Positions 17,901 through 20,900 of a stretch of 64,000 nucleotides of DNA are shown here, one piece after another. Each line of letters starts with the position of its first letter. The first letter of the stretch is position 1. The DNA comes from Escherichia coli (GTDB lineage Bacteria; Pseudomonadota; Gammaproteobacteria; Enterobacterales; Enterobacteriaceae), in the NCBI RefSeq assembly GCF_046105845.1, contig NZ_CP151004.1. The stretch is one strand, 5' to 3'. The position numbers are program-made.

Positions 17901-20900
17901 CAGGTTTACATCTGCCACGTCGCCCACATAGACGAAGTCACGTTTGAAGTTCTCGCTACCTTCAAACAGCTTCGGCGATTCACCGTTGTTAAGCTGAGTG
18001 TTGAGATGGAAAGCGACGCTCGCCATGCTGCCTTTATGGCCTTCACGCGGTCCATAAACGTTGAAATAGCGGAAGCCAACAATCTGCGAGTTCGCTTCTG
18101 GCAGGATTTGACGAACATATTCATCAAACAGGAATTTTGAGTAACCGTAGACATTCAACGGTTTTTCATATTCGCGGGATTCAATAAAGTCGGAGGTGCG
18201 TCCGCCGTAGGTGGCTGCGGAAGAGGCATACAGGAACGGGATTTCGCGCTCCAGACAGTAGTGCAGCAGCTCTTTGGAGTATTGATAGTTGTTATCCATC
18301 ATATACTTGCCATCCCACTCGGTGGTGGAAGAGCATGCGCCTTCGTGGAAAATCGCTTCGACATCACCGAACTCTTCGCCAGCCATAATCTGGATCAGGA
18401 AGTCTTCCTTATCCATATAGTCCGCGATATCCAGATCCACCAGGTTCACAAACTTGGTGCCGTCTTTCAGGTTGTCCACCACCAGAATATCGGTGATGCC
18501 TTTATCATTCAGGGCCTTAACGATGTTGCTGCCGATAAAGCCCGCGCCGCCGGTAACGATGATCATAACTGTAACCTTCGAATTATGGAGTCAGAGACAA
18601 TCTCAGACACGAATGCTTCTATCATATCACTACACGGCGTTGGCTTCAGCCATTCGCCAAAAGTGAGATTGATGGACGTTATTTATCCTGAATTTTGCAG
18701 AAGTGTTAACGCGTCATCTCGTCGCGACCTATAAGTTTGGGTAATATGTGCTGGAATTTGCCCTGTCTGGAGAATCGCAATGCGTGGAGAATTTTATCAG
18801 CAGTTAACCAACGATCTGGAAACCGCACGGGCGGAAGGGTTGTTTAAAGAAGAGCGCATTATTACGTCTGCGCAGCAAGCAGATATCACTGTGGCTGATG
18901 GAAGCCACGTCATTAACTTTTGTGCCAATAACTATCTCGGACTGGCGAATCATCCGGATCTGATTGCGGCGGCAAAGGCGGGAATGGATTCTCACGGTTT
19001 CGGCATGGCTTCGGTGCGTTTTATTTGCGGCACTCAGGACAGCCATAAAGAGCTTGAACAAAAACTGGCGGCCTTCCTGGGGATGGAAGATGCGATTCTC
19101 TACTCTTCCTGCTTTGATGCTAACGGTGGCCTGTTCGAAACGCTGTTAGGCGCGGAAGACGCCATTATCTCCGACGCACTGAACCACGCGTCTATTATTG
19201 ATGGTGTGCGTCTGTGCAAAGCTAAACGCTATCGTTATGCCAACAACGATATGCAGGAGCTGGAAGCACGTCTGAAAGAAGCGCGTGAAGCCGGTGCGCG
19301 TCATGTGCTGATTGCCACCGATGGTGTGTTCTCGATGGACGGCGTGATTGCCAACCTGAAAGGTGTTTGCGATCTCGCAGATAAATACGATGCCCTGGTG
19401 ATGGTAGATGACTCCCACGCGGTAGGTTTTGTCGGTGAAAACGGTCGTGGTTCCCATGAATACTGCGATGTGATGGGCCGGGTCGATATTATCACCGGCA
19501 CGCTCGGTAAAGCGCTGGGCGGGGCTTCTGGTGGTTATACCGCGGCGCGCAAAGAAGTGGTTGAATGGCTGCGCCAGCGTTCTCGTCCGTACCTGTTCTC
19601 CAACTCGCTGGCACCGGCCATTGTTGCCGCGTCTATCAAAGTGCTGGAGATGGTTGAAGCGGGTAGCGAGCTGCGTGACCGTCTGTGGGCGAACGCGCGT
19701 CAGTTCCGTGAGCAAATGTCGGCGGCGGGCTTTACCCTGGCGGGAGCCGATCACGCCATTATTCCGGTCATGCTTGGCGATGCGGTAGTAGCGCAGAAAT
19801 TTGCTCGTGAGCTGCAAAAAGAGGGGATTTACGTCACCGGTTTCTTCTATCCGGTCGTTCCGAAAGGTCAGGCGCGTATTCGTACCCAGATGTCTGCGGC
19901 GCATACCCCTGAGCAAATTACGCGTGCAGTAGAAGCATTCACGCGTATTGGTAAACAACTGGGCGTTATCGCCTGAGGATGTGAGATGAAAGCGTTATCC
20001 AAACTGAAAGCGGAAGAGGGCATCTGGATGACCGACGTTCCTGTACCGGAACTCGGGCATAACGATCTGCTGATTAAAATCCGTAAAACAGCCATCTGCG
20101 GGACTGACGTTCACATCTATAACTGGGATGAGTGGTCGCAAAAAACCATCCCGGTGCCGATGGTCGTGGGCCATGAATATGTCGGTGAAGTGGTAGGTAT
20201 TGGTCAGGAAGTGAAAGGCTTCAAGATTGGCGATCGCGTTTCTGGCGAAGGCCATATCACCTGCGGTCACTGTCGCAACTGTCGTGGCGGTCGTACCCAT
20301 CTGTGCCGCAACACGATCGGCGTCGGCGTTAACCGTCCGGGCTGCTTCGCCGAGTATCTGGTGATTCCGGCGTTCAACGCTTTCAAAATCCCCGACAATA
20401 TCTCCGATGATCTGGCTTCCATTTTTGATCCCTTCGGTAACGCCGTGCATACCGCGCTGTCGTTCGATCTGGTGGGCGAGGATGTGCTGGTCTCTGGTGC
20501 AGGCCCGATTGGTATTATGGCGGCGGCGGTGGCGAAACACGTTGGTGCACGTAACGTGGTGATTACTGATGTTAACGAATACCGCCTTGAGTTGGCGCGT
20601 AAAATGGGTATCACCCGTGCGGTTAACGTCGCTAAAGAGAACCTCAATGATGTGATGGCAGAACTGGGCATGACCGAAGGCTTTGATGTCGGTCTGGAAA
20701 TGTCCGGTGCGCCGCCAGCGTTTCGTACCATGCTCGACACCATGAACCACGGCGGTCGTATTGCGATGCTGGGTATTCCACCGTCTGATATGTCTATCGA
20801 CTGGACCAAAGTGATCTTTAAGGGCTTGTTCATTAAAGGTATTTACGGTCGTGAGATGTTTGAAACCTGGTACAAGATGGCGGCGCTGATTCAGTCTGGC

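Follow-up and report, generated by a model that had tools for sequence, protein, structure and literature searches.

The gene-free layout of the divergent hldD–kbl junction in the window, the 64-kb stretch of Escherichia coli DNA analysed here, is the ordinary, ancestral and majority arrangement of this locus. Its 213 bp very probably represent the ancestral enterobacterial divergent control region, composed of two back-to-back promoter modules, with htrL (yibB) having been gained in K-12 and in about one third of E. coli. That the compact spacer is ancestral and K-12 carries an insertion follows from the frequency of the two states in E. coli, from the spacers of outgroup species and from the nature of the extra DNA in K-12. 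K-12 is an unusual reference for this locus, the gene-free 213-bp spacer being typical of most E. coli and their relatives, and comparative annotation should not count a missing htrL/yibB as deleted.

Layout of the hldD–kbl junction

The genes bordering the junction were identified by profile matches, and the following features define the locus.

17634–18566, minus strand: hldD (rfaD), ADP-glyceromanno-heptose 6-epimerase, 310 aa; NCBIfam NF008360, 677 bits, profile positions 1–309 of 310
18567–18779, no strand, between divergent genes: hldD/kbl intergenic region, exactly 213 bp, gene-free
18780–19976, plus strand: kbl, glycine C-acetyltransferase, 398 aa; TIGR01822, 747 bits, full length
19986–21011, plus strand: tdh; NF003808, 648 bits

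hldD heads the hldD-waaF-waaC-waaL operon, with waaF, waaC and waaL lying downstream on the same minus strand; the minus-strand gene past waaF and waaC is of the O-antigen-ligase type (waaL). On the plus strand, the kbl-tdh operon opens with kbl, and tdh is followed by waaH. The first-pass annotation had described 213 bp between the divergent hldD and kbl starts with no credible ORF, a description confirmed by ORF calls and profile matches: no ORF of at least 20 aa lies wholly within 18567–18779, and the five ORFs that touch this interval all extend into hldD or kbl. RefSeq/PGAP places zero annotated features under the same spacer among the listed genomes sharing it, and an Rfam scan of 18400–18950 at E ≤ 1 returned no match. 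The 213-bp spacer has a G+C content of 43.7%. Additionally, a tblastn search with the K-12 YibB query detected no YibB homolog in the 64-kb window (best E = 0.5).

The K-12 locus and its yibB cassette

The first-pass annotation had also placed htrL between these two genes in K-12 and had proposed that the present strain lacks it. Synteny comparison with K-12 shows that htrL does sit at this locus, the MG1655 order being b3617-b3618-b3619. The absence of the gene from the window likewise stands, given the tblastn result and the lack of an ORF; the loss that the wording implied does not, since the compact form is both the ancestral and the commoner one. In MG1655 (NC_000913.3), the three genes are placed as follows.

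3791355–3792551, minus strand: kbl (b3617)
3792826–3793683, minus strand: htrL/yibB (b3618)
3793987–3794919, plus strand: rfaD/hldD (b3619)

The kbl-to-rfaD spacer of MG1655 measures 1435 bp, and K-12 derivatives share this layout. The cassette accounts for ~1.28 kb and has a G+C content of 36%, compared with 51% for rfaD and 54% for kbl. In K-12 it is equipped with a promoter (TATACA-18-TATAAT plus an upstream TG) and an intrinsic terminator of its own; the htrL promoter hexamers reported in a genomic SELEX listing are identical to those of the cassette (PMC3946193). K-12 YibB comprises 285 aa and matches Pfam HtrL_YibB (PF09612, 436 bits), a family listed in Pfam as of unknown function, while yibB fragments are named 'WlaTC/HtrL family glycosyltransferase' in RefSeq. 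Acinetobacter, Salmonella and Campylobacter have members of the HtrL/YibB family in their LOS/LPS loci (PMC4172580). The surroundings of the K-12 cassette showed no repeat and no signature of a mobile element. Just past the yibB stop, on the kbl-directed strand (positions 5105–5125 of the extracted K-12 locus, L001), GTGGGTAGCGTTTTG includes, as read by eye, GGTAGCGT, which is absent from the window; GGTAGCGT may be akin to the ops/JUMPstart core motif (GGCGGTAGCGTG).

K-12 and the window have the same flanking genes in the same orientation. The 49 bp beside hldD are identical and the 104 bp beside kbl are alike except for a single base, 18715, whereas the K-12 spacer holds htrL/yibB and the window spacer is gene-free, showing none of the marks of a K-12-type locus (a PF09612 gene, a length of ~1.4 kb and an insert of low G+C). 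Base-by-base identity runs from inside hldD to 18615 and again from 18676 into kbl, the first spacer mismatch falling at 18616. In place of the central ~60 bp of the window (18616–18675), K-12 has a diverged foreign copy plus the cassette. Multi-species alignments reveal that K-12 retains, beside hldD, a diverged homolog of the next ~45 bp (TAATCATACCATCACATCCGAATCCCTTCAGCCCTTTACA), which is closest to Enterobacter sp. Ag1 (33 of 40 bases) and Pseudescherichia and farthest from the E. coli compact allele. Judging from these alignments, the hldD-side flank of the K-12 cassette is a foreign, diverged copy of the predicted hldD −10/−35 promoter block. An earlier view of the window's central 60 bp as an unrelated replacement came from a pairwise MAFFT alignment against K-12, in which they fell against the right-hand border of the gap; it was abandoned because the multi-species alignments show a K-12 homolog of the left part.

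Distribution among E. coli genomes

Among 5426 complete E. coli genomes, 3465 contain the compact spacer (at least 80% coverage) and 1958, about 36%, contain yibB; together, the two classes account for 5423 of the 5426. In all 14 of the yibB-positive matches sampled, the query breaks at position 110, a shared breakpoint that points to one insertion allele. The presence of yibB has been found to vary among E. coli isolates in pan-genome comparisons (PMC8303582), and the yibB polymorphism at hldD–kbl is already known accessory-gene variation.

A second compact allele, only 84% identical to that of the window, occurs in about 483 genomes, including E. coli strain 32-4 (locus L083, 6001–6212). In this strain, the one example inspected, the allele adjoins a waa cluster with waaZ and an N-acetylglucosaminyltransferase, and rfaD is annotated at 981 nt rather than 933 nt. 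A further record, NZ_CP026085.1 (4.83 Mb), is labelled E. coli DH5alpha and has the compact spacer, whereas the other K-12 derivatives examined carry yibB; it may be a mislabelled or non-K-12 strain.

Outgroup spacers

An HldD scan with one genome per species yielded 80 loci, and in most of the Enterobacterales loci fetched hldD and kbl are divergent with nothing between them. Specifically, kbl is the immediate, divergent upstream neighbour of hldD in E. albertii (213 bp), in the GTDB E. coli representative (213 bp), and in Citrobacter, Enterobacter, Phytobacter, Kluyvera, Pluralibacter and Cedecea. The arrangement recurs with somewhat longer spacers in further genera, among them Yersinia, Serratia and Photorhabdus at about 230–260 bp. 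Of the 19 Enterobacteriaceae spacers aligned, 18 are 212–217 bp long, a range into which the 213 bp of the window fits.

Compared along the full spacer, with the central ~60 bp that K-12 lacks included, the window shows 99.5% identity to the E. coli species representative, 93.9% to E. albertii and 81–83% to Citrobacter. The compact spacers of the E. coli representative, E. albertii, Citrobacter, Enterobacter and others share with the window both the divergent orientation and the same conserved blocks. They differ from the window by point changes only, most of which fall in the variable centre or in the arms of an inverted repeat; those in the arms are compensatory. The conserved blocks TATCATAnCA, CTTCAGCC, ATTTAT.CT, TCATCTCGT, GGTAATATG and GGAG are all present in the window at the aligned positions. 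The window shows no scar of a yibB deletion: its spacer is collinear with those of E. albertii and Citrobacter and contains no yibB fragment.

Two predicted promoter modules and a variable centre

Conservation across these spacers resolves the 213 bp into the following elements, whose promoter roles are predicted.

18567–18615, minus strand: hldD-proximal 49 bp, identical in K-12; putative hldD 5' leader, placed from the position of the conserved −10
18575–18578, minus strand: hldD Shine-Dalgarno AAGG
18591–18607, minus strand: inverted repeat TCAGAGA-CAA-TCTCAGA (plus-strand letters) with 7-bp arms, recognized by covariation
18621–18629, minus strand: predicted extended −10, TGATATGAT on the hldD strand (TGnTATGAT), from conservation
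18644–18655, minus strand: conserved block CTTCAGCCATTC (GAATGGCTGAAG on the hldD strand), conserved alignment columns
18656–18675, no strand: variable central spacer, columns unconserved across genera; site of the ~1.28-kb yibB cassette in K-12
18677–18690, plus strand: conserved block CGTTATTTATCCTG with invariant T/A columns, about 60 bp upstream of the predicted kbl start
18714–18722, plus strand: conserved block TCATCTCGT, −35 region of the putative kbl promoter, 8 of 9 bases invariant in 19 spacers
18737–18751, plus strand: conserved block TTGGGTAATATGTGC with candidate kbl −10 TAATAT (18742–18747), invariant or nearly so; putative role
18769–18772, plus strand: kbl Shine-Dalgarno GGAG, invariant in 19 of 19 spacers, ending 7 nt before the ATG

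On the hldD side, TATCATA (18620–18626) and CA (18628–18629) are invariant in 19 of 19 aligned Enterobacteriaceae spacers. A candidate −35, the CTGAAG of the CTTCAGCCATTC block, lies 17 bp upstream of the −10, and CTGAAG-17-TATGAT is among the candidates of a relaxed scan. From these positions, transcription of hldD probably starts near 18614 (minus strand), so that the leader would span ~48 nt and have the repeat close to its 5' end. A 20-codon ORF on the minus strand (18625–18563) was considered and rejected as a gene: it starts inside the invariant TATGAT and, on reading the alignment, is broken or frame-shifted in other genera, where for example ATGATAAGAAGTATTAGTGTCTGA stops after 7 codons. 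On the kbl side, the base that varies within the TCATCTCGT block is the C at 18715, and the kbl transcript would start near 18754 (plus strand). A sigma-70 promoter pair for hldD and kbl is thereby predicted from conservation and the relaxed scan; a strict sigma-70 and terminator scan of 18467–18879 gave 0 sites. Relaxed sigma-32 and sigma-E scans of the hldD strand yielded weak matches, at most 9/15 and 8/11, and no heat-shock promoter was assigned.

Literature searches on hldD promoter mapping and on the promoter anatomy of kbl-tdh and Lrp returned nothing usable except that kbl and tdh figure among the Lrp targets (PMC2374795). The block at 18677–18690 is a candidate regulator site for kbl-tdh, possibly bound by Lrp, which is suggested by position only. 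For rfaD of K-12, a promoter TTAATA-17-CATAAA has been predicted by SELEX (PMC3946193). It maps to 4222–4194 of the extracted K-12 locus (L001), about 260 bp upstream of rfaD in acquired AT-rich DNA, and is absent from the window strain and from most E. coli. K-12 promoter features more than about 90 bp upstream of rfaD are acquired DNA and are not transferable to most strains.

The partition of the spacer is illustrated by natural insertions. In both K-12 and Enterobacter sp. Ag1, the CTTCAGCCATTC block stays beside hldD despite the insertion, and the CGTTATTTATCCTG block remains with kbl. Because the insertions part the hldD blocks from the kbl blocks, they support two independent back-to-back modules. 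The hldD module (~18567–18655) would consist of the ~48-nt leader with its inverted repeat, the extended −10 TGATATGAT and the upstream block, and the kbl module (~18677–18779) of the regulator-type block, the −35-region block, the TAATAT −10 and the ribosome-binding site. The htrL/yibB cassette, low in G+C and self-contained with promoter, gene and terminator, occupies the variable centre; its placement exactly there would leave both resident promoters in place. Under this model, nothing would have been lost from the window allele, and K-12 and about a third of E. coli would have gained the cassette via recombination with foreign DNA. The division into hldD- and kbl-specific modules by a natural insertion offers a useful guide for promoter dissection.

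The inverted repeat in the putative hldD leader

Among 23 distinct Enterobacteriaceae sequences, the arms of the 18591–18607 repeat covary, with both sides changed in 6 of 7 pairs. The covariation score is 0.416, compared with 0.19 for shuffled alignments (0 of 500 reach the observed value) and at most 0.215 for slid controls. G-U pairs number 8 in the sense of the hldD strand versus 4 in the antisense, a difference that does not single out a strand. No Rfam family matches the repeat. The repeat may be a hairpin close to the 5' terminus of the hldD transcript, or else a palindromic protein-binding site.

Other occupants of the site

The same insertion point between hldD and kbl is also occupied in Enterobacter sp. 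Ag1 and Citrobacter youngae, but is empty in the window. The occupant in Ag1 is a yibB homolog, oriented as in K-12 (locus L026, 3845–4699; 39.5% G+C), with 81% protein and 76% DNA identity to K-12 yibB. The hldD leader of Ag1 is closer to the Escherichia/Citrobacter type than to the leaders of the related Cedecea neteri and Enterobacter sp. R1. In C. youngae (locus L072, 3552–4703), the occupant is a family-4 (GT4) glycosyltransferase (Glycos_transf_1, 88 bits) unrelated to yibB. The inserted genes of K-12, Ag1 and C. youngae are all co-directional with kbl. We infer that homologous recombination brings cassettes into the site along with adjoining spacer DNA. A broader proposal, which we put forward tentatively and consider rather doubtful at present, is that the variable centre serves as a recurrent landing pad for self-contained LPS-related cassettes, exchanged among Enterobacteriaceae by homologous recombination through the flanking promoter modules, and that the 18591–18607 repeat may be an undescribed cis-element of the heptose/inner-core operon.

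Alternative explanations

Secondary loss, in which an ancestor possessed a K-12-type htrL/yibB and a deletion left the compact spacer, would accord with the K-12 gene order of the waa cluster in the window, given that K-12 carries yibB, and with the patchy occurrence of yibB in E. coli, where B-derived NEBExpress, for example, is compact and K-12 is not. This patchiness indicates frequent recombination at the hldD–kbl locus. However, a simple deletion would not remake the central ~60 bp (18616–18675), whose orthologues are found in the spacers of E. albertii and Citrobacter. The spacer as a whole has 99.5% identity to the E. coli species representative and carries no yibB scar or remnant. Only replacement of the whole allele by recombination fits, again putting the ancestral allele here, and we judge loss to be improbable. 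The ancestry of the allele gives no proof for this particular strain, whose lineage could have had yibB and then regained the compact allele by recombination.

Still less credible is the idea that the spacer encodes an unannotated small protein or small RNA. The 20-codon minus-strand ORF at 18625–18563, which shares an ATGA overlap with the hldD start codon, and the covarying inverted repeat at 18591–18607 speak for such a gene; against it stand the lack of an Rfam match, the lack of a PGAP feature in the listed genomes and the repeat itself, which at 7 bp is short and more in keeping with a leader hairpin or operator than with an RNA gene of its own. As for a collapsed or mis-joined assembly, nothing was found in its favour and the likelihood is close to negligible, the same 213-bp junction recurring at 96% identity or more in other species and in E. 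coli genomes finished independently by the thousand. An ancestral control region that received yibB in some E. coli lineages is accordingly the reading adopted here.

Context in the waa cluster

The waa cluster of the window follows the K-12 gene order, waaQGPSBOJYZU and then waaL-C-F-hldD. A strict rule linking yibB to core type was weighed and discarded, the window combining the K-12 core gene order with the absence of yibB. Two further waa layouts likewise adjoin the compact spacer: the first has an O-antigen ligase on the opposite strand, the second has waaZ and an N-acetylglucosaminyltransferase. As an allele, the window cluster (4000–17633) is rare, being matched at 99% identity or more in 8 of the 5426 complete E. 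coli genomes; about 947 genomes match it at 90–95%, and the best of those listed cover the whole query. Upstream of waaQ, a JUMPstart element (RF01707, 53 bits) lies at 4326–4364 on the plus strand, as expected for an RfaH-dependent operon.
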